DNA of 64,000 nucleotides from Candidatus Latescibacterota bacterium (GCA_965219995.1 CBDCOX010000002.1:4864001-4928000), one strand, 5' to 3'; positions 26,813-50,743 are shown, numbered from the stretch's first letter. Translations and numbers: made by a program. The notes: generated by a model from the sequence alone, not told the origin.

Positions 26813-27886
26813 ATGGCGAATGCCGATAAAATCAAGGAGGCGCGAGACGCCCTGGATGCCCACGTTCGGGAGACGGTGGCCTGGCACTTCAATCCCGAAA
26901 CCGGCTGCCCGTTCTGGCTGGAGTTCGCGGACGGACTGGATTTCGATCCGTGCAGGGAGATCGGCGGTTTCTCGGATCTGAAGATCCTGGGCCATTTTCA
27001 GGACGACTGGCTCCGCGGCGGCCCGGTGCGCCGCTGGATTCCCAGGGGAAGCGCCGGGAAACGGACGTACGTCTTCGAAACGGGAGGGTCCACGGGCGTC
27101 CCGAAATATCGGATCAGCCAGGACGATTTTCAGATCGACTACGAGACGTTCAGCAGGCACCTTTCAGACAAGAGTTTTCCGAAGGACGCCGACTGGCTGA
27201 TGCTGGGTCCCACGGGTCCGAGGCGGCTGCGCCTGGCGGTGGAGTACCTCTGCCAGATCCGGGGCGGGATCTGTTTCCTGGTGGACCTGGATCCAAGGTG
27301 GGTGAACAAGCTGATTGCGCGCGGCGCCCTCCAGGAACTGGATCTCTACAAGGCGCACGTGATCGACCAGGCGCTGACCATTCTGCGGGCGAACGATAAC
27401 GTGAGGTGCATGTTCACGACTCCGAAGCTTCTCGAAGCGATCTGCGAGAAGATCTCGCTGAAGAAAGCCGGGATAACCGGAATCTTCTGCGGCGGGACCG
27501 AGATGGACGCACAGTTCAACCGGTTCGCCAGGGAGGAGCTCGTTCCCGGTATCGATTTCGTGCCGACGTATGGAAATACGCTCATGGGATTGGCGTATTC
27601 CAAGCCGCTGGAGCCTTCGGACAATTACGCCATCACCTATTATCCGCCGGTTCCCAGGGCGGTGATCGAACTGGTGGACCCCGATCGCCCGGACCGGCTC
27701 GTGGATTACAACACCGTTGGCCGCGTGATGTTGACCACGCTGACCCGCGAGTTCTTCATGCCGCGGTTTCTGGAACGGGACGAAGGAGAACGGGCCGAAC
27801 CGAGCGGGGCGTTTCCGTGGGACGGGGTGAGGAATCTGGGACTGTTCTCCGAATTGCAGGAGTCGGTCGTGGTGGGCGTTTACTGA
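26813..27886 (+). CDS. EhpF/GriC-like atypical adenylating enzyme (arylcarboxylate reductase component)
   Basis: WHFNPETGCPFW, FETGGSTGVPK (ANL P-loop variant), DLDPRWV, YGNT, LERD; short ANL-like protein. Confidence 0.72.
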   Translation: MANADKIKEARDALDAHVRETVAWHFNPETGCPFWLEFADGLDFDPCREIGGFSDLKILGHFQDDWLRGGPVRRWIPRGSAGKRTYVFETGGSTGVPKYRISQDDFQIDYETFSRHLSDKSFPKDADWLMLGPTGPRRLRLAVEYLCQIRGGICFLVDLDPRWVNKLIARGALQELDLYKAHVIDQALTILRANDNVRCMFTTPKLLEAICEKISLKKAGITGIFCGGTEMDAQFNRFAREELVPGIDFVPTYGNTLMGLAYSKPLEPSDNYAITYYPPVPRAVIELVDPDRPDRLVDYNTVGRVMLTTLTREFFMPRFLERDEGERAEPSGAFPWDGVRNLGLFSELQESVVVGVY

Positions 27887-27946
27887 CCCGTTGTCGACTT
27901 CTCCAGACTGAAGGCAATGGTTGAATTGACGGCCCAGGAGGTTGGT

Positions 27947-29371
27947 GTGACCCATATCCCGGTATTGCGGGCGGGAGAGCCATACGCAAGTCTGGACGTC
28001 CGGGAAGTTCCGCACGTTCAGACCGGGGAGCCCCTCGTCCGCGTGAGCCACGCAAACCCGGGTCTGATCGTGCGGGACCTGAACGCCGCCAAAGCGAATA
28101 GACGGGCGCTGGAGGCGTTCAGCGTGTCCGATCTTGCAGCCGTGACGCGCAGGGCCGGCCGGCTGTTCGCCGATGCGGACCTGCCACTGGATCGCCAGTC
28201 GCAATCGCCGGGGGACTACGTCCGCCAGGTATCGGGCACCACGGGGATTCCGGAGACCCTCTGCCGGGAGAATATGGAAAAGATCCGGCTGGCCTGTACC
28301 CAGATCGACGAGGTGCTCGCCGGCCTGACGCGCGAGCTGGATCTGCCGGTGCTGGACCGGGGGTGGGGTCCGCAAAACGGCCGCCCGCTGAGCTACGTCT
28401 GCCAGACCGACGCGCTTGGCGCCGTGTTGCCGAGCAATTCACCCGGCGTACATTCGCTCTGGGTTCCCTCGCCGTCGCTGAAGGTGCCCCTGGTGCTGAA
28501 GCCCGGCCGTGAGGACCCCTGGACCCCGTTTCGGATCGCACAGGCGTTTATTGCCGCGGGATGTCCGCGCGAGGCGTTCGGGATCTATCCGACCGGGCAC
28601 GCCGGCGCCAACGAAATCCTCTTGAGGTGCGGGCGTTCCCTTTTGTTCGGCGGCGGCCCTACCGTCGCACCGTGGCTGCACGATCCGCGGGTTTCGGTCC
28701 ACGGTCCGGGCCGCAGCAAGGTGATTCTGGGTGAAGACCTGGTCCACCGCTGGGAGGATTTTCTGGACGTGATCCTGGTTTCGATCGCGGCCAACGGCGG
28801 ACGATCCTGCATCAACGCGTCGAGTGTGTGGACGCCCGCGCACGGCCGCGAGATCGCCGAGGCGATTGCGCGCCGGCTCGCGCGGATCGAGCCCCGGCCG
28901 CTGGACGACCCGGAAGCGCGGATTGCCGCCTTTTCCAACCCGGCTGCCGCCGCCGGGATTTCAAATGTTATCGACGTCCATTTGAAAAGCGGGGGCGCGG
29001 AGGACCTGACCGCGGGCCTGCGCGGCGGCCGGCTTGCCGAACTCGACGGCCTGACGTTCCTGAATCCGACGCTGGTGTGGTGCGAGTCTCCGGAACACCC
29101 CCTCGCGAATACGGAATACCTCTTCCCGTACTCGAGCGTGGTTGAAGCGCCCCGGGCGGGTCTGGCGGACCGGATCGGGCCCAGCCTGGTCGTCACGGCG
29201 TTGACGGAGGATGAAGGCCTCGTGGGCGAGTTGCTGAATTCACCTCACGTGGATCGGCTGAACGCGGGGCCGATTCCCACGAACCGGATTTCGTGGGACC
29301 AGCCCCACGAAGGCAACCTGTTCGAACATCTCTACCGTCAACGCGCCTTTCAGTACGCGAGGAGAGCTTAG
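27947..29371 (+). CDS. Aldehyde dehydrogenase-fold reductase (GriD/EhpG/LuxC-like)
   Basis: LPSNSPGVH, LKPG, HGPGRSK, NGGRSCINAS (catalytic Cys), EYLFP, PHEG; AGGAGG RBS before GTG. Confidence 0.78.
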   Translation: MTHIPVLRAGEPYASLDVREVPHVQTGEPLVRVSHANPGLIVRDLNAAKANRRALEAFSVSDLAAVTRRAGRLFADADLPLDRQSQSPGDYVRQVSGTTGIPETLCRENMEKIRLACTQIDEVLAGLTRELDLPVLDRGWGPQNGRPLSYVCQTDALGAVLPSNSPGVHSLWVPSPSLKVPLVLKPGREDPWTPFRIAQAFIAAGCPREAFGIYPTGHAGANEILLRCGRSLLFGGGPTVAPWLHDPRVSVHGPGRSKVILGEDLVHRWEDFLDVILVSIAANGGRSCINASSVWTPAHGREIAEAIARRLARIEPRPLDDPEARIAAFSNPAAAAGISNVIDVHLKSGGAEDLTAGLRGGRLAELDGLTFLNPTLVWCESPEHPLANTEYLFPYSSVVEAPRAGLADRIGPSLVVTALTEDEGLVGELLNSPHVDRLNAGPIPTNRISWDQPHEGNLFEHLYRQRAFQYARRA

Positions 29372-29385
29372 AACCCCACCGACCG

Positions 29386-30484
<1,099 letters not shown>

Positions 30485-30501
<17 letters not shown>

Positions 30502-31642
30502 AATTCAGGCGCGGCGAAAAGTGGGTCGCGGATGGAACATTTTCCTCATATTGTGTATCTTGTACATACCGGTTCCCGTCCGTGTGGCCGCCGAGACGTC
30601 CTGGCCGCTGTTCCGTGGCGACGCGCAATCCACGGGGTTCGCGCGGGAATCGCTTCCCGAGAGCCTTGTTGTCGCGTGGACGGCCCGCGTACCCGAGGGC
30701 ATCGAGTCCACGGCGGCGATCCGCAAGGGTGCGGTTTTCGTCGGCGGGCTGGACGGCCATCTCTACGCGTTCGATTTCGACACCGGCGCGTTGAAATGGA
30801 AGTACCCGGCCGGGGGGGAGATCAAGGCCTCCCCGCTGGTGGCGGATCATGCGGTTTTCTTCGGAGACGGGGACGGCGGTTTTCACGCCGTGGATGCGTC
30901 ATCGGGCAAGGGGTTGTGGACGTATCGGACCGGGGGAGAGATCATCTCTTCCGCCACGTCGTATGAAGGCCGGGTGATCTTCGGGTCCTACGATCAGTTC
31001 CTGTACTGTCTCAACGCGGAGGACGGGTCGCTGGTCTGGAAGCTGGAGACGGAGGGATACGTTCACGGAACCCCGGCCGTCTGGGGCGAACGCGTGCTCG
31101 TCGCCGGTTGCGACGGTCTGCTGCGGATGGTGCACGCGGATGGCGGAGAAGAAGTATCGAGGGTGGAACTGTTCGACTACGTGGCGGCAAGTGTTGCCGT
31201 GCGCAATGGCAGGGCTTACGCGGGTACTTTCGGCAACCAGGTCCTGGGCCTGGATCTGCGGGCGGCGAAGGTCCTGTGGCGTTACCAACACCCCAGCCGG
31301 AAGTTTCCGTTTTACGCGTCGCCGGCGGTTGCGCAAGGTCACGTGATTGTCGCCGGGCGCGACAGGATGGTGCGCGCGCTTCGTCCGGACAACGGCGACC
31401 TGCTGTGGATTCGGGCGTTCCGTTCTCGCGTCGACTCCTCACCGGTTGTCGCGGGTAAACGGGTGTACGTGGGCACGAACGGCGGGAGAATCGTGGCGCT
31501 GGACCTGGACTCGGGCGAACCGGGGTGGGAATTCGTGACCGGTTCGGGAGTCCTGGCGTCGCCGAGCGTGGCCGGCGGGAGGCTGGTGATCGGCACCGCA
31601 GACGGGACGCTTTACTGTTTTGGCGGCGAGGTAAGCGAATGA
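30485..31642 (+). CDS. Secreted PQQ-like/BamB-like beta-propeller protein
   Basis: Signal-like N-terminus, WPLFRGD, repeated SSP...YAFD..TG..KW blades. Confidence 0.85.
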
Positions 31643-32985
31643 CCTCTCAGGTTCACATTCCGGAACCCGCGACTTCCAGGAAGGAATGGAAGGAAACCGC
31701 GGTCGGAAGCGTCTTCGTGTCCAACTATCCCCCTTATTCGTTCTGGCGGGATGAGCACAACGCGCAGGTCGAATCGATGTTGCAGGATTCGGACCCTTCG
31801 GCAGGGGATGTGCCGCTCGGACTGTATCTGCATATTCCGTTTTGCAGGAAGCGATGCAAGTTCTGCTATTTTCGCGTGTATACGGATCGCAACAGTTCCG
31901 AAATTCAGCTCTATCTGGATGCGCTGGCCCGAGAGGTGGAGAATTTCGCCGGGCTGCCGAGAATCGCCGGACGCAGCTTGCAATTCGTCTACTTCGGCGG
32001 GGGAACGCCGTCGTACATCAGCGTGAAGCACCTGAACGCGCTGGTGGACCGGCTGAAGGCCGTATTGCCGTGGGACGACGCCGAAGAGGTGGCGTTCGAG
32101 TGCGAGCCGGGCACCCTTTCGCAGCCGAAGGTAGAGGCCATTCGAGAGATCGGCGTGACCCGGCTCAGCCTGGGCCTGGAGAACCTGAATGACGGGATAC
32201 TTAAGGAGAACGGCCGGGCGCACGTCGGCAAAGAGATCCACCGGTCGATGGGCTGGGTGAAGGCACAGGCGTTCGAACAGGTGAACGTGGACCTGATTTC
32301 GGGAATGGTGGGCGAGACCTGGCAGACCTGGAAGGAAACCGTTCAGGGTACGATCGATCTGGACCCCGACAGTGTCACGATCTATCAGATGGAGCTGCCA
32401 TTCAACACCACGTATTCCCGTACGCTATTGGATGGAAACGGGTTGACGGTTGCCGACTGGGACACGAAGCGCGCCTGGCATGCCCATGCGATCGACGCGT
32501 TCGGTGAAGCGGGCTACGAGATTTCGAGTGCTTATACGATGGTCAAGAAAGGGCGACCGAAGCGGTTTGTCTATCGGGACGCGCTCTGGCGCAGCGCGGA
32601 CCTGATCGGCGCGGGCGTCGCGTCGTTTTCACACGTGGGCGGGATACACTTTCAGAATCACACGCAGTGGGACCCCTACGTCGAAGCTTGCATGCAGGAG
32701 CGGCTGCCGCTGAACCGGTCCTTCCTGCCCACCGACGAGGAGCGCCTGGTACGCGAGATGATCCTGCAACTCAAGCTCGGACGTATCGAGACAGCGTATT
32801 TTCAGGATAAATTCGGTGTGGATATCCTCGAACGGTTTGGCGAAGCCTACGGGAAGCTGAGAGATTACGGCATGCTGGAATTCGATGCAACGGAGGTCAG
32901 GATGACGCGCGACGGGTTGTTGCGTGTGGATCAATTGCTGCCGGAATTCTATCACGAGGTCTATCGGGATTCGAGGTATACGTGA
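31639..32985 (+). CDS. HemN-like (class C) radical SAM enzyme
   Basis: NYPP, LYLHIPFCRKRCKFCYF (CxxxCxxC), YFGGGTPS. Confidence 0.9.
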   Translation: MTSQVHIPEPATSRKEWKETAVGSVFVSNYPPYSFWRDEHNAQVESMLQDSDPSAGDVPLGLYLHIPFCRKRCKFCYFRVYTDRNSSEIQLYLDALAREVENFAGLPRIAGRSLQFVYFGGGTPSYISVKHLNALVDRLKAVLPWDDAEEVAFECEPGTLSQPKVEAIREIGVTRLSLGLENLNDGILKENGRAHVGKEIHRSMGWVKAQAFEQVNVDLISGMVGETWQTWKETVQGTIDLDPDSVTIYQMELPFNTTYSRTLLDGNGLTVADWDTKRAWHAHAIDAFGEAGYEISSAYTMVKKGRPKRFVYRDALWRSADLIGAGVASFSHVGGIHFQNHTQWDPYVEACMQERLPLNRSFLPTDEERLVREMILQLKLGRIETAYFQDKFGVDILERFGEAYGKLRDYGMLEFDATEVRMTRDGLLRVDQLLPEFYHEVYRDSRYT

Positions 32986-33035
32986 AGCCCTACGAAGACT
33001 TGCCGTCCTGAAAGGTCAGAAAGGAAGAACGCAAG

Positions 33036-34256
33036 ATGCATCGAATATCGTTATTGATTGTCGCGTTCCTGTGGATTGACGTCCCATCGGTTCGAGCGGA
33101 TTGGCCCCAATGGCTGGGTCCGAACCGGACCGGCATTTCGCGCGAGACCGGATTCCTGAAGTCCTGGCCGAAGGGCGGTCCGCCGGTAGTGTGGAAGAAG
33201 AACCTCGGCGAGGGGTTTTCGGGGATTTCGGTCGCGAACGGCCGCGTCTTCACCATGTTCGCCGAGGGTGACGATGAGTTCGTCATTTGTCTGAAAGAGG
33301 AATCGGGAGGCGAGATCTGGCGGTTCAGGACAGGGGGCGCCTTCGAGGAATGGCAGGGCGGCAACGGACCCCGTTCGCAGCCGACGGTCGACGGCGATCG
33401 GGTCTACGTCCTGGGCGCGGAAGGCTGGTTGTACGCACTGAACGTGGTGAACGGTGAAAGGATCTGGGCCGTGGACCTGGTCGACGGGCTGGGCGGGCGT
33501 TTTCCCCGGTTCGGCTTTTCGAATTCGGCTCTGGTGGAAGGCGATCTGTTATTCGTGGAGGCCGCCACCCGCAAGGGTACGTTTCTGGCATTGCGCAGGA
33601 CGGACGGCAAAGTCGTCTGGGCTTCCCAGAACGACGTGGCTTCCTATTCTTCGCCCATTGCGGTGGATCTCGCCGGCGCGCGGCAGGTGGTCTATTTTTC
33701 GGGTGACGCCGCGGTCGGACTTTCGCCGGTGGACGGGTCCCTGTACTGGCGGTACCCGTGGAAGACGTCGTACGATTTGAATATCGCAACGCCCATCTTC
33801 GTGCCGCCGGATCAGATCTTCATTTCCTCGGGCTACGACCACGGCGCGGCCCTGCTGCGAATCGAGGCGGGGAATAACGGGATGGCGGTGACCAGGGTCT
33901 GGGAGAGCCGGCGGATGAAGAACCACTTCGGCACCTCCGTGCTTGTCGGGGACTATCTCTACGGATTCGATAACGCCATCCTGAAGTGTATCGAAGCCCG
34001 GACGGGAAAGGAGCAGTGGAAACACCGCGGGTACGGCAAGGGGGCGTTGATCTATGCGGACGGGCATCTTCTCCTGTTGAGCGACAACGGAAGGCTGGCC
34101 CTGGCGCGGGCAACGCCGGAAGGATTCAAGGAAAAAGCCGGCGCGCAGGTGCTTACGGGCAAAAGCTGGACCGTGCCGACGCTGGCCAACGGCCGCGTGT
34201 TCGTCAGGGATATGCGTAAGATCGTCTGTCTGGATCTCAGGGAGGGCGGGGAGTGA
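33036..34256 (+). CDS. Secreted PQQ-like beta-propeller protein
   Basis: Signal peptide, DWPQWLGPNRTG, GPRSQPTV, YSSP. Confidence 0.85.
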   Translation: MHRISLLIVAFLWIDVPSVRADWPQWLGPNRTGISRETGFLKSWPKGGPPVVWKKNLGEGFSGISVANGRVFTMFAEGDDEFVICLKEESGGEIWRFRTGGAFEEWQGGNGPRSQPTVDGDRVYVLGAEGWLYALNVVNGERIWAVDLVDGLGGRFPRFGFSNSALVEGDLLFVEAATRKGTFLALRRTDGKVVWASQNDVASYSSPIAVDLAGARQVVYFSGDAAVGLSPVDGSLYWRYPWKTSYDLNIATPIFVPPDQIFISSGYDHGAALLRIEAGNNGMAVTRVWESRRMKNHFGTSVLVGDYLYGFDNAILKCIEARTGKEQWKHRGYGKGALIYADGHLLLLSDNGRLALARATPEGFKEKAGAQVLTGKSWTVPTLANGRVFVRDMRKIVCLDLREGGE

Positions 34257-34281: not shown

Positions 34282-34686
34282 TAACATGGATATACAGGAT
34301 GGACAGGATAAAAACCAAAGGCGGGCAACCACACGGGTTGCCCCTACGAATACAACGTGAACGCTGTCGGATAGGATGAGTCGAATGTGAAACGGTAAAG
34401 ATGAAGTGGAAAGGACTCCAGCTCGATTCCACGGTAGATCATCCATAAGAAAGGTGCTTGCATGGAACATGTGATTGTTTTTCAGTACCGTTAACGTCGA
34501 AGAACCGCATCTGCGTGTTTCGATGCCGGCTCGTGCAGGCTCGTATTTTTGGATTTCTCAAATTTACTTTAATGAAATAAAGAAGAGACTTATAAAACGA
34601 AAAATCGTGTCAATTAAGTTGCGATTGAATTGGTTCAAGCCGTCTGTTTTTTGTTTTTATCCTGTTCATCCTGTCCATCCATGTAA
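34282..34686. repeat. Inverted pair of 9-mer (ACAGGAT-NN) arrays
   Basis: ACATGGATATACAGGATGGACAGGATAAAA (34284-34313) vs TTTTATCCTGTTCATCCTGTCCATCCATGT (34655-34684). Confidence 0.8.
34322..34348 (-). repeat. GTAG-family REP
   Basis: Reverse complement is CGTAGGGGCAACCCGTGTGGTTGCCCG. Confidence 0.75.
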
Positions 34687-34710: not shown

Positions 34711-36828
34711 ATGTCGCGTATGTGCCGAACGGGTTTGGTGGCTGTCACTCTTCTGGGTCTGCTGGTAAACGCCTCGTTTGCCGCGGATGACAAGGCCGAT
34801 GAGGACGCCGGGGACGACCTTCCGGTCTATGCCGGTGAAGAGATCGTGGTGACGGAGAGCAAGGAAAAGGTTGCCACGATCGGTTCCGTTGCCAGCAAGA
34901 TTCCGGTACCCCTCAGCGAAACGCCCGCGAGCGTCAGTGTGGTCAATCGCGGACTGATCGAACATCAGAGCGGCGTGGTTCTCGGCGACGCGCTGCGAAA
35001 CGTCAGCGGCGTAAACGTGCAGACGGTGTTCGGCGTGACGGATTTCTTCGTGATTCGCGGATTCGACTCGCTATCGAGCGGGCTGGTGCTCACGGACGGC
35101 GCGTCCGAGCCGGAGGCCACGTTCTACAACCTTTACAACCTGGACCGGGTGGAGGTGCTGAAAGGCCCGGGCGCGTTTCTCTATGGCGCCAATCCGCTGT
35201 CCGGATCGGTCAATCTGAACCGGAAGCAACCCGTCTTCGAGCCCATGTTCCAGGCCAGCGGCGCTTACGGGCCATTCGGGAGTCTGCGCGGAACCGTCGA
35301 TGCGGGCTGGGCGGATCCCGCGCAGGGGTTGGCCGCGCGTTTCAACGGCCTCCGACAGGTCTCGGACAACTACCGTGACGACAAGCACAGCGGGATCTGG
35401 GCGTTGAACCCCGCCGTCACCCTTCGAAATGAAAAGACGACGGCGACGGCGAATCTCGAATACGTGACGAGCGAGTACAAGTCGGATTCGGGGCTGCCCG
35501 TGGCCGGCGGACAGCTGGCCGATGTGCCCCGTACCCGTTCCTACCAGTCACCGTTCGACGTTTCAGACCAGGAAATTATCCGGGTGCGGATGGATCTGCA
35601 GACCCGGTTGTCTCCCCGGGTCACGTTGCGCAATAAACTGTATTACACCGATTTTTCCTGGATCTCCAACGGCACGCTGTTCAACGGTGTGTTTCCCAAT
35701 GCCGCGGGAAGCCTGGATCTGATCCGGACGCTGCTGCTCCTCGACGACAGGCAGAAGGTGCTGGGCAATCAGCTTGAGTTCGTGTTTTCCTTTTCCACCG
35801 GACGGGTCAGGCATACGCTCCTGGCGGGTCTGGAACTGATGCGGTGGACGGACCGGTTTACGCTCGACGTCGCGGTCCTGCCGACTATCGATCTGTACCA
35901 ACCCGTCGAGACGGCCGCGCTCCCGCATTTCGTGGTACCGGACCAGTCGCGAGCGGCCGATGCGACGAGCGGCGTTGTTGCGCCCTTTGTCGTCGACCGC
36001 ATTGTGTTTTCAGATTTCTTCCACGCGTTCGTGGGCGGCCGCTTCGATCGGATACGGTACGACGACCCGGTCACGTCCACGTCGAGGGCGTTCAACGAAT
36101 TGAGTCCGATGGCAGGCGTGTCACTCAATCCCGCCGAGGACCTGACCCTCTATGCCAGCGCGGGCAAGGCCTTTGCGCCGCCATCGAGCCTCGTGGCGGG
36201 ACCCCGCGACGTCGAATCCGCCACGCAGTTCGAGGCGGGCGCGAAAAAGTACCTTGTCGACAACCGCCTGCACGCGTCTCTGGCCGTCTTCGATCTGCGG
36301 AAGTACGGCATCGGCATTCCGGATGAGACCGGCGTGACGAAACAGGACGGCGACCAGCGGTCGCGGGGCATGGAACTGGAAATGATGGCGCGACCCGGAG
36401 GCGGTTGCCACGTTTTCCTGACGTATGCGTTTTCCAATGCGGAGCTGACGCGCTTTACGGAGATGCTGGCCGTACCCACGCCCACCGGGATGCAGTTCCG
36501 GCACCTGGACCGGTCCGGCAACCAACCGGCCTGGTCGCCGCGTCATATTCTCAATATCTGGAGCGCGCTGGGCTTCGATAACGGGTTCGAACTGGGCATG
36601 GGCGCCAGGTACGTCGGGAGCCAGTTCATTGCCGAGGACAATCAGTTCGGCATCGGCGGGGTGCTGACGCTCGACGCTTCGGCGTCGTATACCTTTAAGC
36701 AGACGACGATCAGACTCAATGCCAGGAATCTGACCGATCGAGTATATGAGACACGCGGGTTCGGCGCGATGTCGGTGATCCCTGCGCCCCCGTTCGGTCT
36801 GTACAGCGCGATCCAGGTCGAGCTATGA
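34711..36828 (+). CDS. TonB-dependent receptor (siderophore-type)
   Basis: Signal peptide, EEIVVT TonB box, ETPASVSVV, IRGF, RVEVLKGP, NLTDRVY. Confidence 0.92.
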   Translation: MSRMCRTGLVAVTLLGLLVNASFAADDKADEDAGDDLPVYAGEEIVVTESKEKVATIGSVASKIPVPLSETPASVSVVNRGLIEHQSGVVLGDALRNVSGVNVQTVFGVTDFFVIRGFDSLSSGLVLTDGASEPEATFYNLYNLDRVEVLKGPGAFLYGANPLSGSVNLNRKQPVFEPMFQASGAYGPFGSLRGTVDAGWADPAQGLAARFNGLRQVSDNYRDDKHSGIWALNPAVTLRNEKTTATANLEYVTSEYKSDSGLPVAGGQLADVPRTRSYQSPFDVSDQEIIRVRMDLQTRLSPRVTLRNKLYYTDFSWISNGTLFNGVFPNAAGSLDLIRTLLLLDDRQKVLGNQLEFVFSFSTGRVRHTLLAGLELMRWTDRFTLDVAVLPTIDLYQPVETAALPHFVVPDQSRAADATSGVVAPFVVDRIVFSDFFHAFVGGRFDRIRYDDPVTSTSRAFNELSPMAGVSLNPAEDLTLYASAGKAFAPPSSLVAGPRDVESATQFEAGAKKYLVDNRLHASLAVFDLRKYGIGIPDETGVTKQDGDQRSRGMELEMMARPGGGCHVFLTYAFSNAELTRFTEMLAVPTPTGMQFRHLDRSGNQPAWSPRHILNIWSALGFDNGFELGMGARYVGSQFIAEDNQFGIGGVLTLDASASYTFKQTTIRLNARNLTDRVYETRGFGAMSVIPAPPFGLYSAIQVEL

Positions 36829-40031: not shown

Positions 40032-40041
40032 GTCATTTCCC

Positions 40042-42014: not shown

Positions 42015-42452
42015 GTGCCAAGCGAATTCCGCACCACGCGACGCGTCGAGTTTTCGGATACGGACATGGCCGGGATCGTGCACTTTTCCCGGTTTTTCGT
42101 TTTCATGGAGGCGGCCGAACACGCGTTCCTGCGTTCGCTCGGCACCAGCGTTCATACCCGATGGGAAGGGCGCAGGGTCGGGTGGCCCCGGGTTGGCGCG
42201 TCTTGCGACTATCTGGAACCGGCGCGGTTCGAAGACGTGCTGGACGTCCATATGAAGGTCGTCAGAAAGGGGACGAGCTCGCTGACGTTTGGGTTCGAGT
42301 TCCGCCGCGGCGACCGCCCGATCGCGCGGGGCCGGTTGAGTACGGTGTTCTGTGAATGCGCGCCGGGGCAGCCGTTCCGGGCCATTCCCATCCCGGGCGC
42401 CATCGCGGAACGGATCCAGGAAGCAGAGGACAAGGATGACGCTGCGGGCTGA
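42015..42452 (+). CDS. 4HBT/YbgC-like hotdog acyl-CoA thioesterase
   Basis: RVEFSDTDMAGIVHF..F...E. Confidence 0.9.
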   Translation: MPSEFRTTRRVEFSDTDMAGIVHFSRFFVFMEAAEHAFLRSLGTSVHTRWEGRRVGWPRVGASCDYLEPARFEDVLDVHMKVVRKGTSSLTFGFEFRRGDRPIARGRLSTVFCECAPGQPFRAIPIPGAIAERIQEAEDKDDAAG

Positions 42453-43095
42453 GCGGGTATCGAAACAGTACGGCGACGTGTCCGTTCTGCGGGAGGTTTC
42501 GTTCGAGACGGGACGCGGGCAGTCCGTGGCGGTCGTCGGGCCGTCGGGATCGGGAAAGAGTACGCTCCTGCACGTACTGGGCACCCTGGACAGACCGTCG
42601 TCGGGCCGCGTGGAGATCGACGGCCGGGACCCCTACGCCCTTTCCGACAAGGAGCTGGCGCGCTTTCGGAATCGCGGGATCGGATTCGTGTTCCAGGACC
42701 ACCATCTGCTGCCGCAGTATTCGGTACTGGAGAACGTCCTGATTCCCACGCTGGCATCCGGAGACGCCGGATCCGGCGCCGGGGACCGGGCCCGGGACCT
42801 GATCGAACGCGTCGGGCTCGCGCATCGGGCCGACCACCGCCCGGCCGCTCTGTCCGGGGGCGAACGCCAACGGGCGGCCGTGGCTCGAGCGCTGGTCAAC
42901 AGGCCGGCGCTCCTCCTGTGCGATGAGCCGACGGGCAGCCTGGACCGGGCGCGTGCCGACGAGATTGGAGACCTGATTTTTGACCTGCACGCCCGGGAGG
43001 ACACGATCCTGATCGGGGTCACGCACAGCCCGGAAATGGCCGCACGGTTCGAACGCACCCTTGAGCTGCGGGAGGGGACTTGCGTCGAAGCCTGA
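42436..43095 (+). CDS. ABC ATP-binding protein (LolD/MacB-like)
   Basis: GPSGSGKST, LSGGERQR, CDEPTG. Confidence 0.93.
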   Translation: MTLRAERVSKQYGDVSVLREVSFETGRGQSVAVVGPSGSGKSTLLHVLGTLDRPSSGRVEIDGRDPYALSDKELARFRNRGIGFVFQDHHLLPQYSVLENVLIPTLASGDAGSGAGDRARDLIERVGLAHRADHRPAALSGGERQRAAVARALVNRPALLLCDEPTGSLDRARADEIGDLIFDLHAREDTILIGVTHSPEMAARFERTLELREGTCVEA

Positions 43096-46000
43096 CCTTC
43101 TTCTGGCGAATTCATCTTTCCGTGCTGATGGGCGTGGCCGTGGCCACCGCCGTGCTCACCGGGGCCCTGCTGGTGGGCGACTCGGTACGCGACAGCCTGA
43201 GAGACCTGACCCTCGACCGCCTGGGAGCTATCGGCCACGCCCTCGTTTCGGATCGCTTCTTTCGCACGGACCTCGCGCGGGACATCGAGGCGGAGAGCGA
43301 CGGATTGACCGTTGTGCCGGCGGTGACGCTCAGCGGATCGGCGGTGCACGCCGGCGCGGGGACCCGCGCCTCCCGCGTCGCCATTCTGGGTGTGGATTCC
43401 CGGTTCGGCGGCCTGTTCGATGTTTACGCACCCGACCTCGTCCGCCGCGGGGCCGCGACGCCGTTTGTCGCCAACGAGTCTCTGCGGAGCGAACTGAACG
43501 CCGGGGTGGGCGACGCGGTCCTGCTTTCGTTCGAATTGCCGGGGGACGTCCACCGGGAGTCTTTGTTCGGACGGGACGGGATCTCGGAGTCGATACAGAC
43601 CGTACGCGTCAGACTCGCGGGTGTCGTGCCCGACCGGGGAATCGGTCGATTCGGTTTGCGCCCGCGCCAGCGGACGCCGCTCAATGCGTTCGTGTCCCTG
43701 CCCCTGTTGCAGGAAGCGCTAGGACTGCCGGGCCGGGTGAATATGCTCCTGGTTTCGCGGGATACGCGGGCCGCCGGCGATCCGGCGCCCGCGCTCGCCC
43801 GCGCCGCAACGCTGGATGATCTCGGGCTTTCGATGCGGGTGAATGCCGATTATCTCGCGGTTGAAAGCACGGGGTTTCTCCTGAAGTCCCACGTGGCGAA
43901 CCCGATACTTGAACTCGCGGATGAACTGGGGATGCCGCGAATGGCGATCCTCACGTACCTGGCCAAAACGATCCGGGTCGGGGATCGCGTACTGCCCTAT
44001 TCGACGGTTGCCGCGATGGACGTGGGGAGCGTCGGCAAGCTGCGACTGGCAGACGGGCGCCCCGCGCCGGTCCCCGGCGATGGGGAAGTGCTGCTGAATG
44101 CCTGGGCGGCGCAGGACCTTCGCGCCGGGACCGGCGACACCGTCGAGCTGGCTTTTTTCGAAGCCGGACCGAAGGCGGCGCTGAACGCGCGGCACGTCAC
44201 GTTACGCCTGGCGGGTGTCGTCGCCATGGAAGGGTTGGGCGCCGATTCCCTGTTGACGCCGGCATTGCCGGGTCTCCACGACGCGGAAGACATGCACGCC
44301 TGGGACCCGCCCTTCCCGGTGGACCTGACGCGCATACGGCCCGTGGACGAAGCCTATTGGGACGCCTACCGCGCCGCGCCCAAAGCCATCGTGTCGTACG
44401 CCACGGGACAACGTCTCTGGCGAAGCCGATTCGGAAGCCTGACGTCCGTCAGGATGGGTCCCGCGCCCGGATTGGACGTCGCCCAATCCGCCGAGCGGTT
44501 ACGGTCCGGACTCCGGGAGGCGCTCCCGCCCGAATCCGCCGGCATGGTCTTTCAGCCGGTGAGAAAACAGGGTCTGGCGGCTTCGTCGGGGTCCACGGAC
44601 TTCGGCGGGCTGTTCGCCGGATTCAGTCTGTTCCTGATTGTCTCGGCGGCGCTGCTCGTGGGTCTCCTCTTCCGGCTTGGCGTGGAGCAGCGCGCCGATG
44701 AGGTGGGCGTGCTGATGGCGTCGGGTTTTACCGCGGGCGCGATCAGACGCCGGTTCATGGGCGAGGCGGTCTGGCTGACCGGGTTGGGGGGACTTCTCGG
44801 ACTCGCGGGAGGACTGGCGTACGGATGGGTCATGATCGCGGGTCTGCGCACCTGGTGGGCTCCGGCCGTCGGGACCGGTGAACTCGCGCTGCACGTGCAC
44901 GGGACCAGTCTGGCGGCCGGGTACCTGATTTCACAGGTTGTGGTTCTGTTCACGATTCTGACGACGGTCCGGCGATTGGGCGGTATGCCCGTTCGGGCCC
45001 TGCTTTCCGGTGCCGTTCACCACGCGGCCGCCGGCAGCGGGCGCCGTTTGAAGGTGGTTGCGATCGCGAGCCTGGGACTGGCCTCGGCCTGCCTTGCCGG
45101 TGTGCCGCGAGCGGGGCGCGAAGCCGCGATCGCGCTGTTTTTCGGATGCGGGACATTTCTTCTGATTTCGGGCCTGTGCGCGCTCGCCGTCTGGTTTCAG
45201 CGCGGTCGGCGCAACCTGGTGACTGGAATCTGGAGGATGGGTGTGCGGAACAGCGCGCGAAATCCGGGCCGGAGTCTGCTGTGCGCATCGCTGATCGCCT
45301 GCGCGTGCTTCGTGGTTGTGGCGGTTGGCGCCCATCGCCGCATCGATGCCGGCCGCGATGCGTTGAACAGCCGGACGTCGGGCGGGGGTGGATTTCAGCT
45401 CATCGCGGAAACGGATGCGCCGCTCTACCACGATCCCGGTTCGGCGGACGGGCGCTTCGAGCTGGGGTTTTCCGCGGAGGATGCCCGGATTCTGGACGGG
45501 GCGCAAATCATGCCGTTTCGCGTGTTGCCGGGTGAAGACGTGAGTTGTCTGAATCTCTACAGACCGCGTCATCCCCGGGTTCTGGGCGCCCCCGAAACGT
45601 TGATTCGACGGGGCGGCTTCGCGTTCGATCGGTTGCTGTACGAAACCGGGGCGCCCTGGACGTTGTTGACGCGGCGTGAGGAGCCCGGTGTGATTCCCGC
45701 ATTCGGCGACGCGAACTCGGTAACCTGGATTCTCCACAAGAAGCTGGGCGACGAAATTCCGATACAGACGGAAGCGGGCGAGACCGTCAGGCTGCGACTT
45801 GTGGGACTGCTGAAGCACAGTATCTTCCAGAGTGAACTGCTGGTATCGGAGGAGAATTTCACCGCGCATTTCCCCGATCGGGGCGGCTACGGCTACTTTC
45901 TCGTGCAGACCGACCGGCCCGGTGAAACGGGCGTCCTCCTGGAGCGGCGGTTGCAGGACGCAGGTCTCGATGCGACGCCGACGACGGCCAGGCTCGCGCA

Positions 46001-46397
46001 TTTCCGGACCGTGGAGAATACGTACCTTTCGACGTTTCAGACGCTTGGCGGGCTGGGGGTGCTCCTTGGGACGATCGGACTGGGGATCGTGATGGTGCGC
46101 AACGTCATCGAACGGCGTACCGAGCTGGCGGCGCTGCGGGCGCTGGGGTTTCGCCGGGCGCTGTTGAGCGGACTCCTGTGCGTGGAGAACGGATTCCTGA
46201 TGGCGACGGGCATGGCAATCGGCGTTGCGGCGGCGATCGTGACAACCGTGCCCCATGCCTCCGGCGGGCTGCCGTGGGCGTCGTTACTGGCCACGCTGTG
46301 CCTAATCTTTGGCGCGGGCCTGGCTGCCGGTACCGCGGGGGTTCTCGTTGCGCTGAGGACGCCGCTGTTGCCGGCGTTGAAACGCGAAGGCGCCTGA
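43080..46397 (+). CDS. ABC permease with duplicated FtsX/MacB domains
   Basis: 1105 aa; two TM blocks (EQRADEVGVL, ERRTELAALRALGF) and two periplasmic domains. Confidence 0.88.
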   Translation: MRRSLTFFWRIHLSVLMGVAVATAVLTGALLVGDSVRDSLRDLTLDRLGAIGHALVSDRFFRTDLARDIEAESDGLTVVPAVTLSGSAVHAGAGTRASRVAILGVDSRFGGLFDVYAPDLVRRGAATPFVANESLRSELNAGVGDAVLLSFELPGDVHRESLFGRDGISESIQTVRVRLAGVVPDRGIGRFGLRPRQRTPLNAFVSLPLLQEALGLPGRVNMLLVSRDTRAAGDPAPALARAATLDDLGLSMRVNADYLAVESTGFLLKSHVANPILELADELGMPRMAILTYLAKTIRVGDRVLPYSTVAAMDVGSVGKLRLADGRPAPVPGDGEVLLNAWAAQDLRAGTGDTVELAFFEAGPKAALNARHVTLRLAGVVAMEGLGADSLLTPALPGLHDAEDMHAWDPPFPVDLTRIRPVDEAYWDAYRAAPKAIVSYATGQRLWRSRFGSLTSVRMGPAPGLDVAQSAERLRSGLREALPPESAGMVFQPVRKQGLAASSGSTDFGGLFAGFSLFLIVSAALLVGLLFRLGVEQRADEVGVLMASGFTAGAIRRRFMGEAVWLTGLGGLLGLAGGLAYGWVMIAGLRTWWAPAVGTGELALHVHGTSLAAGYLISQVVVLFTILTTVRRLGGMPVRALLSGAVHHAAAGSGRRLKVVAIASLGLASACLAGVPRAGREAAIALFFGCGTFLLISGLCALAVWFQRGRRNLVTGIWRMGVRNSARNPGRSLLCASLIACACFVVVAVGAHRRIDAGRDALNSRTSGGGGFQLIAETDAPLYHDPGSADGRFELGFSAEDARILDGAQIMPFRVLPGEDVSCLNLYRPRHPRVLGAPETLIRRGGFAFDRLLYETGAPWTLLTRREEPGVIPAFGDANSVTWILHKKLGDEIPIQTEAGETVRLRLVGLLKHSIFQSELLVSEENFTAHFPDRGGYGYFLVQTDRPGETGVLLERRLQDAGLDATPTTARLAHFRTVENTYLSTFQTLGGLGVLLGTIGLGIVMVRNVIERRTELAALRALGFRRALLSGLLCVENGFLMATGMAIGVAAAIVTTVPHASGGLPWASLLATLCLIFGAGLAAGTAGVLVALRTPLLPALKREGA

Positions 46398-46505: not shown

Positions 46506-47804
46506 ATGAATCGGATGACGCTGGCCTTGACGGTTTTCTGTATACTGGTCGCAACCGGACCGGCTGCGTCGGACTGGCCGCATTGGCGCGGCCCGAACCG
46601 CAACGGGCTCGTGGACGGGGCGAATCCTCCCGTTGAGTGGAGCGAAGGGAAGAATATCAGATGGAAAGCGCCCATTCCCGGCATGGGCCACGCAACGCCG
46701 GTCGTCTGGGGCGAGCGGATTTTCGTGCAGACAGCCGTCATGACCGACAAGGTAGTGGAGAACACCGGAGGGGGAAGGCGCCAACCCCCGCCCAATCTGT
46801 ATCAATACAGGGTCCTGGCCCTGAATCGTCAGACCGGAGAAATAGTCTGGGAGAAGACGGTCAAGGAAGCCCGGCCGCACGAGGGAATGCACCGGACCGC
46901 GTCGTTCGCGTCACCATCGGGCATTACGGACGGTGAACATCTCTATGCGTATTTCGGGTCGCAAGGGCTCTATTGCCTCGATATGGACGGCAATCTGAAG
47001 TGGGAGAAGGACCTGGGCAAATACTGGAGCAGGGCCGCTTTCGGCGAGGGGGCTTCGCCGATGATCCACGGCAGCACCCTGGTGATCAACTGGGACCACG
47101 AAGGGGACTCCTTCATTGTCGCGCTGGACAAGGCGTCGGGCAGGGAGCTCTGGCGCAAGGCGCGGGATGAGGTGACGTCCTGGTCCACGCCCCTTCCTGT
47201 CGAGCACGGCGGCCGGACCCAGGTGATCGTCAGCGCGTCGCGCCGCACCCGTAGCTACGACCTGAAGACCGGGGCGTTGATCTGGGAATGCGGTGGATTG
47301 GGGACGAACGTGATTCCGACGCCGCTGTACGAAAACGGGGTGGTGTACGTGGCCAGCGGCCACAGGGACCCCGCCATGCAGGCAATTGATCTGGCCGGGG
47401 CGAAGGGCGACGTCTCGGGTTCGGACTCGGTGTTATGGTCGATCGCCCGGAACACACCCTATGTGTCGTCACCCCTGCTCTACGGCGGCCGGCTGTTTCT
47501 CATGAAGGGCAGGGGAGCGATCCTGTCCTGCTATGACGCCGGCACCGGGAAGCCCGTTTTCGGGCCCGAACGCATTGACGGGATGGGCTTCGTCTACGCG
47601 TCGCTGGTCGGCGCGGGCGGCCGCGTGTACATTTCCGACCTCGAGGGTACCACGCTCGTTGTCGGGAACGGCCCTGAATTCGAGGTTCTGGCGAAGAACA
47701 CCCTGGACGAAGGGAGCGGGGCGTCGCCGGTGGTTGTGGGAGACGACCTCTATCTGCGGGGGCGCAGTCACCTCTATTGTATTGCGGAAGACAAGCGGAA
47801 CTGA
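46506..47804 (+). CDS. Secreted PQQ-like beta-propeller protein
   Basis: Signal peptide, DWPHWRGPNRNG, ASP, SWSTP, YVSSP. Confidence 0.87.
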   Translation: MNRMTLALTVFCILVATGPAASDWPHWRGPNRNGLVDGANPPVEWSEGKNIRWKAPIPGMGHATPVVWGERIFVQTAVMTDKVVENTGGGRRQPPPNLYQYRVLALNRQTGEIVWEKTVKEARPHEGMHRTASFASPSGITDGEHLYAYFGSQGLYCLDMDGNLKWEKDLGKYWSRAAFGEGASPMIHGSTLVINWDHEGDSFIVALDKASGRELWRKARDEVTSWSTPLPVEHGGRTQVIVSASRRTRSYDLKTGALIWECGGLGTNVIPTPLYENGVVYVASGHRDPAMQAIDLAGAKGDVSGSDSVLWSIARNTPYVSSPLLYGGRLFLMKGRGAILSCYDAGTGKPVFGPERIDGMGFVYASLVGAGGRVYISDLEGTTLVVGNGPEFEVLAKNTLDEGSGASPVVVGDDLYLRGRSHLYCIAEDKRN

Positions 47805-47844
47805 TCGATCGGAGACACGGAACCGAATGGAGAGAGGAGTCTCG

Positions 47845-48843
47845 ATGGACCGGTTTGAGGGCACGACACGCGTGGTCGGCGCAGCGATCGTAATCCTCCT
47901 GGTTGCGTTCGGATGCGAGGCGCCGGACAGCGGGCGGGAAACGACCGAGCCCCAGCGCCGCTTCCTGAGCATCGGCACGGCTCCGCCCGGGGGCGCGTTC
48001 TTTGTGGTCGGCGGCGCGATCGCGCAGGTCGTGGACGACCGCGCCGGCGACCTGTCGTGGGACGTATCCGCGGAGGCGACCAAGGGGACGCAGGAGAACA
48101 TCCGCCGGCTCGTGCGCGGGGAGCTGGATTTCGCGCTGGCCAATGCCGCGATATCGTACTTTGCGGTGCGGGGCGAGGGCGCCTGGGGCGAAAAGCAGGC
48201 CATCAACGCCGTGATGACGCTGGCCCCGAATATCGCCCTCTTCGTGGCGCCGGAAGGCACGGGAATCCGCGCCATCGGCGATCTCAGGGGCAAGCGGGTC
48301 GTCGTTGGTCCCGCGGGCGCCGGGTTCGAGTATTTCCTCGCGCCGATCCTCGAGGCTCACGGCGTCACCTACGAGGACTTCAGCCCGCTGCACAATACGC
48401 AGGCCGGCGCCGTGGACATGCTTGCGGACGGGTCCGCCGCCGCGGCCTTTCTGGGCGGCGCCGTGCCGACGGCGTCCATCACCCAGGCGAGCGCTTCACA
48501 GGACATCCGCTTCATCCCCTTTGGCGTCACCGAAAAAGAACGTCTGTTCCGGGACTATCCGTTCTTCAATGCGGCGAGTATTCCCGCAGATACCTATCGC
48601 GGCCAGGCAGAGCCCTTCGACGGCATGAACGTGGGTTCGATGCACCTGGTGACGCCTGCCGCCCTGGACGAGGAGACGGTCTACCGGTTTACCAGGATCC
48701 TCTACGAGAACCGCGCGGACGTGGTAAAGAAACACCCCGCGGGCAGAGCCATCCAGCCAAAGAACGTGATCCGGGATACCGGTACTCCCTTCCATCCCGG
48801 GGCGATCCGGTATTACAGGGAAATCGGAATCTGGCCCAACTGA
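47845..48843 (+). CDS. TAXI-family TRAP substrate-binding lipoprotein
   Basis: Lipobox-like VAFGC, IGTAPPGGAF, ATKGTQEN, PFHPGAIRYY. Confidence 0.9.
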   Translation: MDRFEGTTRVVGAAIVILLVAFGCEAPDSGRETTEPQRRFLSIGTAPPGGAFFVVGGAIAQVVDDRAGDLSWDVSAEATKGTQENIRRLVRGELDFALANAAISYFAVRGEGAWGEKQAINAVMTLAPNIALFVAPEGTGIRAIGDLRGKRVVVGPAGAGFEYFLAPILEAHGVTYEDFSPLHNTQAGAVDMLADGSAAAAFLGGAVPTASITQASASQDIRFIPFGVTEKERLFRDYPFFNAASIPADTYRGQAEPFDGMNVGSMHLVTPAALDEETVYRFTRILYENRADVVKKHPAGRAIQPKNVIRDTGTPFHPGAIRYYREIGIWPN

Positions 48844-48844
48844 C

Positions 48845-50743
48845 ATGCTCGAGCCATTGCTTTTTCGCATCCTGGCGGTCCTGCTGAGTATCTTCGTCCT
48901 GGCTGAGGTCAACTATCCGGGACTGACGCCTCAAGCCCAACTGGCTTTCTTTGCCATGTTGGGCTTGAGTCTTGTATTCCTGAAACACCCGGTCCGCGCA
49001 GGCGCACGCGGGCTCCGCCGGACGCTGGAACCCTTCCTCGTTGCGGCGGTTTTCTTCTGCTTCGGCTACGTGCTGATCCAGACCGAACCGGTCTTCGAAG
49101 CCTTCTGGCTGGGGGGCCGCAGTCTGGGCAACCGCGCGGGACTGGAACATCCGCTGGATTGGGCGGTCGGTCTGGCCGGCCTGATTCTCATCCTGGAAGC
49201 GACCCGACGCGCCATCGGGCTCACGCTGCCGCTGCTGTCTCTCGCGTTCCTGGCGTATGCCGCCTTCGGTCACGTCATGCCCGACTGGCTCTTCCCTCAC
49301 AGGGGGTACGGCTGGGAGCGTATTGTCTCCCAGACCTTTCTCCATACGCAGGGCGCATTCGGCATCGCGCTGAAAGTGATGTTTACTTACGTGTTTCTCT
49401 TCGTGCTGTTCGGCACGACGCTGGAAGGGACGGGCGCGACCGGGTACGTACTGGACGCCGCGCGCAGGTTTTTCGGAAGGCGTACCGGCGGACCCGCGAA
49501 GGTTGCCGTTGTCTCGTCGGGGATTATGGGATCACTGTCGGGGAGCGCGGTCGCGAACACGGCCACCACGGGTACGTTCACGATCCCGATGATGCGATCG
49601 GCAGGATTCCGGCCCGTGACGGCGGGGGGGATCGAAGCGGCCGCCAGTTCGGGCGGGGCGCTGGTGCCGCCGATCATGGGCGCCGGCGCCTACATGATGC
49701 TGGAGATGGTGGATCCGGCGGTAACTTACCTGGAGATCGTCAGGGCGGCGCTCATTCCCGCGGTTTTCTACTATACCGCGCTTCTGCTGATCGTCCACTT
49801 CCACGCCCGTCGCATCCGGGTTGCGGCAGGGGATGAAGGAACCCCGGGCCGCCCGCCGGGCGCCCCCGGCGTTGTCTTCCTCGTGGCGCTGGTGAGCCTG
49901 ATCGTGCTGATCGTCCTCGGGTATACGCCGTTCCGGGCGGTCAGCATCGCCCTGGTCTGCACGCTGCTGGCGGCCGCATTGAAGCCGTCGACGCGCATGG
50001 GGCCCCGTTCACTGCTGCGTGCCGTGGAAGGCGCGGCCCACGGCGGCGTGTCTCTCATCGCGGCGGCTGCCTGCGTGGGCATCATCATCGGGGTGGTCAC
50101 CCTCACGGGGATCGGCGCGAGGCTGCCCGGGGCCATACTGCCGCTGGCTCAGGACAATCTGGTACTCGCGCTGATTCTGCTGATGGGTTCCACCATCATT
50201 CTGGGAATGGGCCTGCCGTCGGCCGTTTGTTATCTGCTGATGGCCACGCTCGTCGGCCCCGTCCTGGGCGAACTGGGCGTTGTGCCCCTGGCGGCGCATA
50301 TGTTCATCTTCTATTTCGGGATGATGTCGATGGTGACGCCGCCCGTGGCGCTGGCCGCCTACACCGCCGCCGCGATCGCGAAGGCGGACATCATGCGCAC
50401 GGGTCTTGCGTCATTTCGTTTCGCCCTGGTCGGTTTCGCCCTGCCCTACGCCTTCGTACTGCATCCCGAACTGCTTCTCGTCTCCCCGGACCTTGCGTCG
50501 ACCGTCGTCAACGTCCTCATCGTCTTCGCCGGGATTCTTCCACTGGCCGCGGCAATCTCCGGCTATGGCTTCGCCCCTCTGAATGCCTGGCAGCGCGCGG
50601 TGCTTCTCGTTGCGGCGCTTGTCCTCTTTCTCACTCCGTCAGGAAGTCTTCGGCTCTGGATTCAGGGTTCCGCCGTCCTCGTTGCCGGAATCGTCGCGTT
50701 GATGAACCGGCGGTCCGCCGACCGGGCGTCTTCGTCTCAGTAG
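48845..50743 (+). CDS. TRAP fused permease (4TM/12TM)
   Basis: GGPAKVAV, SGSAVAN, PPIMGAGA, ILGMGLP, TPPVALAAY. Confidence 0.92.
   Translation: MLEPLLFRILAVLLSIFVLAEVNYPGLTPQAQLAFFAMLGLSLVFLKHPVRAGARGLRRTLEPFLVAAVFFCFGYVLIQTEPVFEAFWLGGRSLGNRAGLEHPLDWAVGLAGLILILEATRRAIGLTLPLLSLAFLAYAAFGHVMPDWLFPHRGYGWERIVSQTFLHTQGAFGIALKVMFTYVFLFVLFGTTLEGTGATGYVLDAARRFFGRRTGGPAKVAVVSSGIMGSLSGSAVANTATTGTFTIPMMRSAGFRPVTAGGIEAAASSGGALVPPIMGAGAYMMLEMVDPAVTYLEIVRAALIPAVFYYTALLLIVHFHARRIRVAAGDEGTPGRPPGAPGVVFLVALVSLIVLIVLGYTPFRAVSIALVCTLLAAALKPSTRMGPRSLLRAVEGAAHGGVSLIAAAACVGIIIGVVTLTGIGARLPGAILPLAQDNLVLALILLMGSTIILGMGLPSAVCYLLMATLVGPVLGELGVVPLAAHMFIFYFGMMSMVTPPVALAAYTAAAIAKADIMRTGLASFRFALVGFALPYAFVLHPELLLVSPDLASTVVNVLIVFAGILPLAAAISGYGFAPLNAWQRAVLLVAALVLFLTPSGSLRLWIQGSAVLVAGIVALMNRRSADRASSSQ

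Follow-up and report, generated by a model that had tools for sequence, protein, structure and literature searches.

A conserved, carrier-free gene cluster of Candidatus Latescibacterota with the makings of an acid-reducing, halogenating and glycosylating pathway

We analysed a cluster of 18 co-directional genes of about 24 kb (26747-50743, all on the plus strand) in a 64 000 nt stretch of DNA, hereafter the window, from a Candidatus Latescibacterota bacterium (GCA_965219995.1 CBDCOX010000002.1:4864001-4928000). Open reading frame (ORF), Pfam, NCBIfam and small-ORF scans of the window recovered all of the gene families that an initial annotation, made from the sequence alone, had named here, save that two of its labels, a drug/metabolite transporter (DMT) protein and pyrroloquinoline quinone (PQQ)-like propellers, had to be corrected. 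Families were called with Pfam and NCBIfam, using the NCBIfam equivalog cut-offs for characterized families, and gene starts were corrected from N-terminal sequences; for A, C, N and Q the ORF openings differ from these starts.

26810..27886, plus strand: A, EhpF/GriC-type adenylase, an ANL core without C-terminal subdomain (ORF opens at 26747)
27917..29371, plus strand: B, partner protein of the aldehyde dehydrogenase (ALDH) fold (Pfam Aldedh, 1.3e-9)
about 29386..30501, plus strand: C, iron-containing alcohol dehydrogenase (Pfam Fe-ADH, 5.4e-45; ORF opens at 29293)
30485..31642, plus strand: D, exported eight-bladed BamB-type propeller 1 (signal peptide, model and fold matches)
about 31636..32985, plus strand: E, HemN-like (class C type) radical S-adenosylmethionine (SAM) enzyme (Radical_SAM and HemN_C)
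33036..34256, plus strand: F, exported BamB-type propeller 2 (PQQ_2, 2.4e-34; signal peptide)
34287..34686, no strand: AT-rich spacer with inverted repeat copies, resembling a miniature inverted-repeat transposable element (MITE) (sequence inspection and repeat counts)
34711..36828, plus strand: G, TonB-dependent receptor of the siderophore type (Plug and barrel; TIGR01783)
36825..38102, plus strand: H, PaaK-family aryl/acyl-coenzyme A (CoA) ligase (AMP-binding_C_2)
38095..39390, plus strand: I, flavin-dependent halogenase of the phenol/pyrrole type, without C-terminal lid (PDB matches and motifs)
39613..39987, plus strand: J, four-helix-bundle '23S rRNA IVP' gene (PF05635, 1.3e-25)
40030..41334, plus strand: K, GT4 glycosyltransferase (Glycos_transf_1, 5.2e-30)
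41407..41907, plus strand: L, orphan membrane protein of 166 aa with five predicted helices (no family match)
42015..42452, plus strand: M, hotdog thioesterase of the 4HBT/YbgC type (4HBT_2, 1.2e-11)
42433..43095, plus strand: N, ATP-binding cassette (ABC) ATPase of the LolD/MacB/DevA type (ABC_tran, 1.6e-34; ORF opens at 42352)
43080..46397, plus strand: O, permease of 1105 aa carrying two FtsX domains and a periplasmic domain that resembles MacB (FtsX, two stretches)
46506..47804, plus strand: P, exported BamB-type propeller 3 (PQQ_2, 7.1e-27; signal peptide)
47824..48843, plus strand: Q, TAXI-family solute-binding protein of a tripartite ATP-independent periplasmic (TRAP) transporter (TIGR02122; ORF opens at 47533)
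48845..50743, plus strand: R, fused TRAP permease (TIGR02123)

With the starts corrected, most gene junctions are overlaps or gaps of < 110 nt, the exceptions lying before G and around J. Pfam matches in the window included no non-ribosomal peptide synthetase (NRPS), polyketide synthase (PKS) or terpene families. A six-frame search of the whole genome for the PP-binding domain PF00550 gave four matches, the nearest being 117 kb away, and the cluster is therefore carrier-free; both searches uphold the annotated lack of NRPS, PKS and carrier proteins. The whole window gave 0 Rfam matches to a riboswitch or other known RNA element.

The adenylase A has > 8000 relatives (70-95% identity among the 120 best listed), and in a collection with one genome per species 494 of 520 matched genome stretches encode one. 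Synteny was followed in the best 80 of these 494 stretches, whose flanks end at 10 kb; genes were counted at the 51 loci flanked on either side by 9 kb or more (full-flank loci), the counts of the later genes being lower bounds. Phylum labels among the best 80 comprised Latescibacterota, Gemmatimonadota, Poribacteria, Acidobacteriota (classes Thermoanaerobaculia, Vicinamibacteria, Blastocatellia and Polarisedimenticolia), Calditrichia, KSB1 and one Patescibacteria. B adjoined A at 46 of the 51 full-flank loci; C was present at 36, D at 34, E at 33, G at 24 and H at 18. The common order was propeller-propeller-A-B-C-D-E-(F)-(G)-(H)-I-...-K, and in all five distant genomes that were extended further K-L-M-N-O followed contiguously downstream, at 42-71% identity. 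Hence the genes do co-occur elsewhere, under at least five phylum labels, and the similar Acidobacteria neighbourhoods that the initial annotation mentioned were found as Acidobacteriota loci.

The blocks A-B, C-D-E, H-I and K-L-M-N-O recur joined or split. Vicinamibacteria and Blastocatellia carry a short version, A-B-K-N-O plus propellers. One Poribacteria genome has C-D-E-H-I-Q on another contig, one Calditrichia genome has a block of an I-like gene (44% identity), M, L and H apart from A-B, and in four Latescibacterota genomes A and I lie 0.3-2 Mb apart. Among 81 genomes from the phylum to which the window belongs, 35 carry A together with L, and 34 of them also have I, the genome without I being 84% complete; the other 46 had none of the three. 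In each of two genera (g6 and g13) one genome held A, L and I and its sister genomes none. Related genomes are not independent, so that this co-occurrence is a pattern, not a statistic. We take the cluster to be single-copy, slowly evolving, and gained and lost as a unit. The A tree broadly tracks phyla, with Gemmatimonadota-labelled metagenome-assembled genomes (MAGs) interleaved with Latescibacterota. The adenylases of five Gemmatimonadota-labelled loci (L012-L014, L065 and L067) are 90% identical to that of the window and nest inside Latescibacterota, reflecting either wrong labels or recent transfer.

The first two genes resemble a known kind of two-protein system. A (~358 aa) has as its sole solved relatives in the PDB two EhpF entries (E = 6.7e-42, aligned to EhpF residues 25-354), and its P-loop, FETGGSTGVPK, is invariant in 33 orthologues (mean column identity 77%, unusually high for such a spread of phyla). 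Across phyla, A is 66-95% identical in the ortholog alignment. Protein Atlas placed it in generic AMP-binding clusters only, and Pfam and PDB searches gave no LuxE match. All 33 sequences of B that were compared share Cys298 (within NGGRSCINAS), and where ALDHs have their general-base Glu the sequence is HGPGRSK. From what is generally known of ALDHs, replacement of this hydrolytic Glu fits acyl-enzyme reduction, not hydrolysis, and on its sequence B is a probable acyl-enzyme reductase, EhpG/GriD-like. The dehydrogenase C scores under every NCBIfam equivalog cut-off. Candidate A-B and H-I gene fusions were rejected, as the frames of 833-879 aa are stop-to-stop spans over separate genes in different frames.

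A second set of enzymes comprises the ligase H, the halogenase I, the thioesterase M and the radical SAM enzyme E. H resembles PaaK at the family level only (202.3 bits against a cut-off of 646.3, and 236.2 against 700), and it likewise stays below the cut-offs of FlxY (168 bits) and BagE (112 bits). The best PDB matches of I were 8zop (2e-67; the literature search turned up no paper for this entry), PltA (5e-60) and CndH (3.5e-58), phenol/pyrrole halogenases being closest; it also aligns with Mpy16, Bmp2 and CmlS, and over the full core with PltA, Mpy16, Bmp2 and CndH (E = 5e-60 to 8.6e-49), sharing their motifs. Flavin-dependent halogenases are marked by GxGxxG, a catalytic Lys and WxWxIP; I has all three intact, as GGGPAG, the Lys of 'VRKY', aligned to that of PltA and CndH, and WFWYIP, while scoring under the CmlS equivalog cut-off (212 vs 900). 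M reaches 55 bits for the YbgC subfamily (cut-off 68.7). E carries the CxxxCxxC motif and a HemN_C domain, and its solved relatives are HemN (9e-30) and the methyltransferase NocN (2e-24); it scores 173.6 against the hemN cut-off of 324.95 and is also under those of HutW, HemW and HemZ. The methylation assumed by the initial annotation is only one possible reaction for this HemN-like enzyme. In five related genomes (G077, G085, G044, G076 and G018) one or two stop codons interrupt the frame of the halogenase match; these could be assembly errors in long-read MAGs or signs of gene decay.

Further downstream the cluster turns to glycosyl transfer and the membrane. K reaches no NCBIfam equivalog, and its orthologs are 46-59% identical. 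L, 64-71% identical across phyla, matched neither EamA/DMT nor any other Pfam or NCBIfam family at E <= 1. A profile search brought up 1100 representative relatives, many with two domain copies; none of 14 relatives tested matched EamA, and Pfam recognized just one of them, which bears a propeller fragment. A DMT-like layout would be compatible with the five predicted helices and with the duplication seen in relatives; with no family match and a poor predicted model (predicted local distance difference test score, pLDDT, 61), however, we call L an orphan five-helix membrane protein in place of the annotated DMT protein. For the pair N/O, scores were 51 for FtsX (cut-off 25.5), 23.6 for MacB_PCD (27) and 248 for LolD (308), and N also resembles DevA (141 bits). 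O orthologues of 43-54% identity lie beside the cluster in all five distant genomes.

The receptor G passes the TIGR01783 cut-off (250.5 bits vs 223.5) and has Pfam Plug and barrel domains. Q and R pass TIGR02122 (252.6 vs 84.35) and TIGR02123 (543.7 vs 320.65); the PDB matches of Q are TAXI proteins (about 1e-38), a family-level resemblance only, and four Acidobacteriota loci likewise have Q-R beside the cluster (60-70% identity). The inner-membrane importer appears to be exchangeable. Four of the five extended distant genomes carry DUF3311 and an SSF sodium:solute symporter between I and K, a position that in the window holds only J, and here the importer is the TAXI-TRAP pair at the cluster end. 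Because other genomes carry DUF3311 and SSF there, J looks like an insertion or replacement at the importer site, outside the pathway.

D, F and P each have a signal peptide. The predicted model of D (pLDDT 91.9) is an eight-bladed propeller, with BamB (TM score about 0.75), YxaL and tetrathionate hydrolase as best folds. The three propellers scored 169.6, 61.3 and 39.7 against the BamB equivalog cut-off of 285.2, and 82.7, 29 and 21 against that of the methanol/ethanol quinoprotein family TIGR03075, which is 480. A quinoprotein-type identity was therefore rejected, the latter scores being far under the cut-off and the fold of D being of the BamB type, and we replace the 'PQQ-like' label by BamB-type, eight-bladed, on the fold search with D and the family scores. 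The two large propellers that precede A elsewhere have orthologues in the same genome at C2:4438445-4442110, 450 kb away (58% and 67% identity). Neighbours of this relocated pair are aminotransferase, HEAT-repeat and GFO/IDH/MocA genes; no further cluster genes were found near it.

From these gene families and motifs, together with the synteny and co-occurrence, we infer the chemical steps, their order and the aromatic nature of the acid; on balance, and by a small measure, we favour one functional system that would turn a carboxylic acid into a reduced, halogenated, glycosylated and envelope-directed compound. It would be built from five recombining modules. A would adenylate the acid, and the acyl group would pass to the invariant Cys of B and be released as aldehyde with NAD(P)H, so that A and B together would reduce carboxylic acids as a two-protein enzyme of the EhpF/EhpG (GriC/GriD) kind; C would then reduce the aldehyde to the alcohol. 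In the H-I-M module CoA would replace the carrier protein: H would make an aryl- or acyl-CoA, I would chlorinate or brominate the CoA-bound acyl group, and M would hydrolyse the thioester to the free acid. E might add a C-methyl group or carry out a HemN-type oxidative decarboxylation, and K would glycosylate the alcohol or a phenol. L and the MacB/Lol-like ABC machine N/O would move the product out of the cytoplasmic membrane, where the BamB-type propellers D, F and P, and the two encoded elsewhere in the genome, may bind, carry or process it. G and the inner-membrane importer (TAXI-TRAP here, DUF3311 plus SSF elsewhere) would serve either to take up the acid precursor or to recover the product. 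An aromatic substrate is favoured by three independent family affinities, those of A for EhpF, of H for PaaK, BagE and FlxY, and of I for phenol/pyrrole halogenases, none of them decisive. The UbiC-type chorismate lyase PF04345 was not found in the genome of the window (98.6% complete), which gives weak support to import of the acid precursor. Of the interpretation proposed from the sequence, the conserved, carrier-free unit held; the suggested route from an imported aryl carboxylate to a reduced, halogenated, methylated and exported glycoside derives from family-level resemblance, and some versions of the cluster do without the halogenase.

Several observations weigh against such a single pathway. 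At five of the 51 full-flank loci there is no B within 10 kb of A. Three Vicinamibacteria/Blastocatellia genomes that keep A-B-K-N-O have no halogenase orthologue, and therefore halogenation is not essential to the A-B system. All of the cluster enzymes score under the curated cut-offs of characterized families, so that specificities cannot be transferred, and no enzyme activity, substrate or product is on record for any member of this cluster family. PltA and Mpy16 depend on carrier proteins, which makes a CoA-bound halogenase substrate a guess. A model with an exporter as well as two importers lacks parsimony, except where the product is recycled. On the other side, contigs from two metatranscriptome runs of one study match A, B, H, I, L and O in part, at 93-98% identity, and hint weakly that a close relative expresses these genes; contigs of RNA libraries may, however, contain DNA. 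Sponge metagenome runs contain at least half of the words sampled from the window.

A rival reading is a metallophore cycle, in which a secreted metal chelator, e.g. a halogenated phenolic glycoside, would be exported by N/O, recaptured by G and readmitted through TRAP or SSF. G passes the TonB siderophore receptor cut-off, its orthologues are kept inside the cluster at the 24 loci counted above, in Latescibacterota, Gemmatimonadota and Acidobacteriota, and an exporter and two importers are united in one cluster. We nevertheless consider a metallophore unlikely: Pfam and NCBIfam scans showed no NRPS-independent siderophore (NIS) or NRPS synthetase and no enzymes for the building of catechols, hydroxamates or carboxylates, many versions of the cluster lack G, Rfam showed no riboswitch or known RNA element in the window, and the authors of a preprint on related clusters find TonB genes surprising without other metallophore features (bioRxiv 10.64898/2026.08.03.742642). 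The product could alternatively be an envelope glycolipid. A, B and C would make a fatty alcohol from a fatty or other lipid acid, K an alkyl glycoside, L and N/O would deliver it to the outer membrane, and the propellers would serve as periplasmic carriers, by analogy with heterocyst glycolipids, which involve HglT and DevBCA. The likeness of N to LolD and DevA, the YbgC-like M, the minimal set A-B-K-N-O plus propellers in Vicinamibacteria and Blastocatellia, and GT9 and GT28 genes after A-B in one Poribacteria locus would all suit a glycolipid. This reading is distinctly unlikely in our judgement: flavin halogenases attack electron-rich sp2 carbons and not alkyl chains, and the affinities of H and I lie with aryl-acid and phenol/pyrrole families. 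A has no LuxE match, and its sole solved relative, EhpF, is part of a phenazine pathway (PMC11278526).

Uptake with catabolism or detoxification of an environmental aromatic acid would account for the outer- and inner-membrane importers and for CoA ligase, thioesterase, ALDH and alcohol dehydrogenase, which are typical catabolic parts, and sugar-acid and CoA-transferase genes flank the cluster. The flanking genes, however, are conserved in close relatives only, Pfam shows no ring-cleavage or beta-oxidation genes, and catabolism is at odds with a GT4 enzyme, an ABC exporter, up to five exported propellers and a halogenase whose motifs are intact; we rate it as very improbable. That unrelated operons are merely juxtaposed in this genome, to which the separation of modules in some genomes and the two upstream propellers 450 kb away might point, is largely refuted by co-occurrence and synteny: the modules occur together whether joined or split, are lost together, and recur in the same order across phyla. 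We give chance next to no credence. A further reading, for which we see a slim chance, is that a small halogenated aryl-alcohol glycoside is the dedicated ligand or prosthetic cofactor of the exported BamB-type propellers, with its own synthesis, export and salvage, much as PQQ is. If true, bacteria under at least five phylum labels, most of them uncultured, would share a conserved cofactor system of the periplasm.

Returning to the acid-reducing, halogenating and glycosylating system that we favour, literature searches found no characterized pathway matching the cluster, in line with the initial annotation. The closest description is that of Halo_AMP, a pseudoclass of sponge-microbiome clusters defined by a flavin halogenase and an AMP-binding enzyme without NRPS or PKS (bioRxiv 10.64898/2026.08.03.742642), and A, H and I provide this combination in one cluster without canonical cores. 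As far as the available portion of that preprint goes, Halo_AMP clusters often contain PQQ-like domains and TonB transporter, radical SAM, glycosyltransferase, thioesterase and ABC genes, and their hosts include Acidobacteriota, Latescibacterota and Poribacteria; for 267 gene-cluster families it reports no MIBiG reference biosynthetic gene cluster and names no product. Its authors needed a custom rule, which fits the earlier remark that rule-based finders could largely miss such clusters. The same portion describes a purely bioinformatic study of sponges and seawater with a focus on a P450-containing subtype (CC A), and contains neither the EhpF/EhpG-type reductase core nor a distribution beyond sponges. 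Identity of a Halo_AMP group with the present architecture is likely, if unproven. We regard the cluster as an uncharacterized but already noticed system, in which known kinds of enzyme stand in a new combination.

For A-B there are known counterparts. In the D-alanylgriseoluteic acid phenazine pathway of Pantoea agglomerans (EhpF/EhpG) and in grixazone formation by Streptomyces griseus (GriC/GriD), a short ANL adenylase likewise has an ALDH-fold neighbour; A-B shows the same P-loop-bearing ANL core without C-terminal subdomain and an adjoining ALDH-fold protein with its Cys. EhpF acts on phenazine-1,6-dicarboxylate, and the EhpF structure paper and the GriC/GriD work are said to have proposed acid-to-aldehyde chemistry. 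Unlike either pair, A-B sits with propellers, a radical SAM enzyme, a halogenase, a GT4 enzyme and transporters, lacks phenazine and 3-amino-4-hydroxybenzoate (3,4-AHBA) genes, and has a far more conserved adenylase. The halogenases PltA, Mpy16, Bmp2 and CndH act on carrier-protein thioesters, whereas the window has no carrier within 117 kb and offers a PaaK-type ligase and a hotdog thioesterase instead. BamB (YfgL), of the beta-barrel assembly machine, has the same eight-bladed fold as D; here, however, there are up to five propellers per system, fixed in a metabolic cluster, and all three in the window fall under the BamB cut-off. In the published operon table, ehpF (1062 bp) and ehpG (1371 bp, ALDH family) are adjacent (PMC11278526). 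A small, stand-alone-enzyme route to a halogenated hydroxybenzoate, likewise in an under-studied phylum and invisible to antiSMASH, is described for the baa locus of Planctomycetales strain 10988, which makes 3,5-dibromo-p-anisic acid; the locus, as presented in the accessible part of the source, consists of a chorismate lyase and a flavoprotein brominase likened by the authors to Bmp5, without reductase, ligase, glycosyltransferase or exporter (bioRxiv 10.1101/723874).

The carriers number hundreds of species of Latescibacterota, Acidobacteriota, Poribacteria, Gemmatimonadota-labelled MAGs, Calditrichia and KSB1, many of which live in sponges or sediments and are so far beyond cultivation. 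The cluster lies outside every standard cluster-finder rule, and its product is missing from present inventories of microbial chemistry. Discovery of the product would give a function to the orphan L family with its 1100 representative clusters, show what a large set of exported propellers is for, and provide the EhpF/EhpG-type acid reductase with a first role outside antibiotic pathways; it could possibly also explain the origin of some halogenated aromatics of marine sponges.

A 28-nt repeat, composed of tandem GGAYRGGAT-like 9-mers ending in AAAAC, has 78 copies in the genome as against 0 for the reversed control; the window contains five matches (0.12 expected), one of them at 57856-57877. 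Two inverted copies bracket the ~340-nt AT-rich spacer (34287-34686) just upstream of G, which looks like a MITE insertion ahead of this gene. Upstream of A, at 21989-26793, lie genes for a PcRGLX-like glycoside hydrolase/lyase and two GFO/IDH/MocA oxidoreductases; none but close relatives (A identity >= 87%) retain them, so that they probably form a sugar-acid operon of their own. Downstream, on the minus strand at 51351-55618, genes for a carboxyl transferase, a family III CoA-transferase and a seven-bladed lactonase are not conserved with the cluster. The GC content falls to 0.48-0.50 at about 6000-14000, compared with about 0.62 elsewhere in the window, and this segment may be a foreign island.

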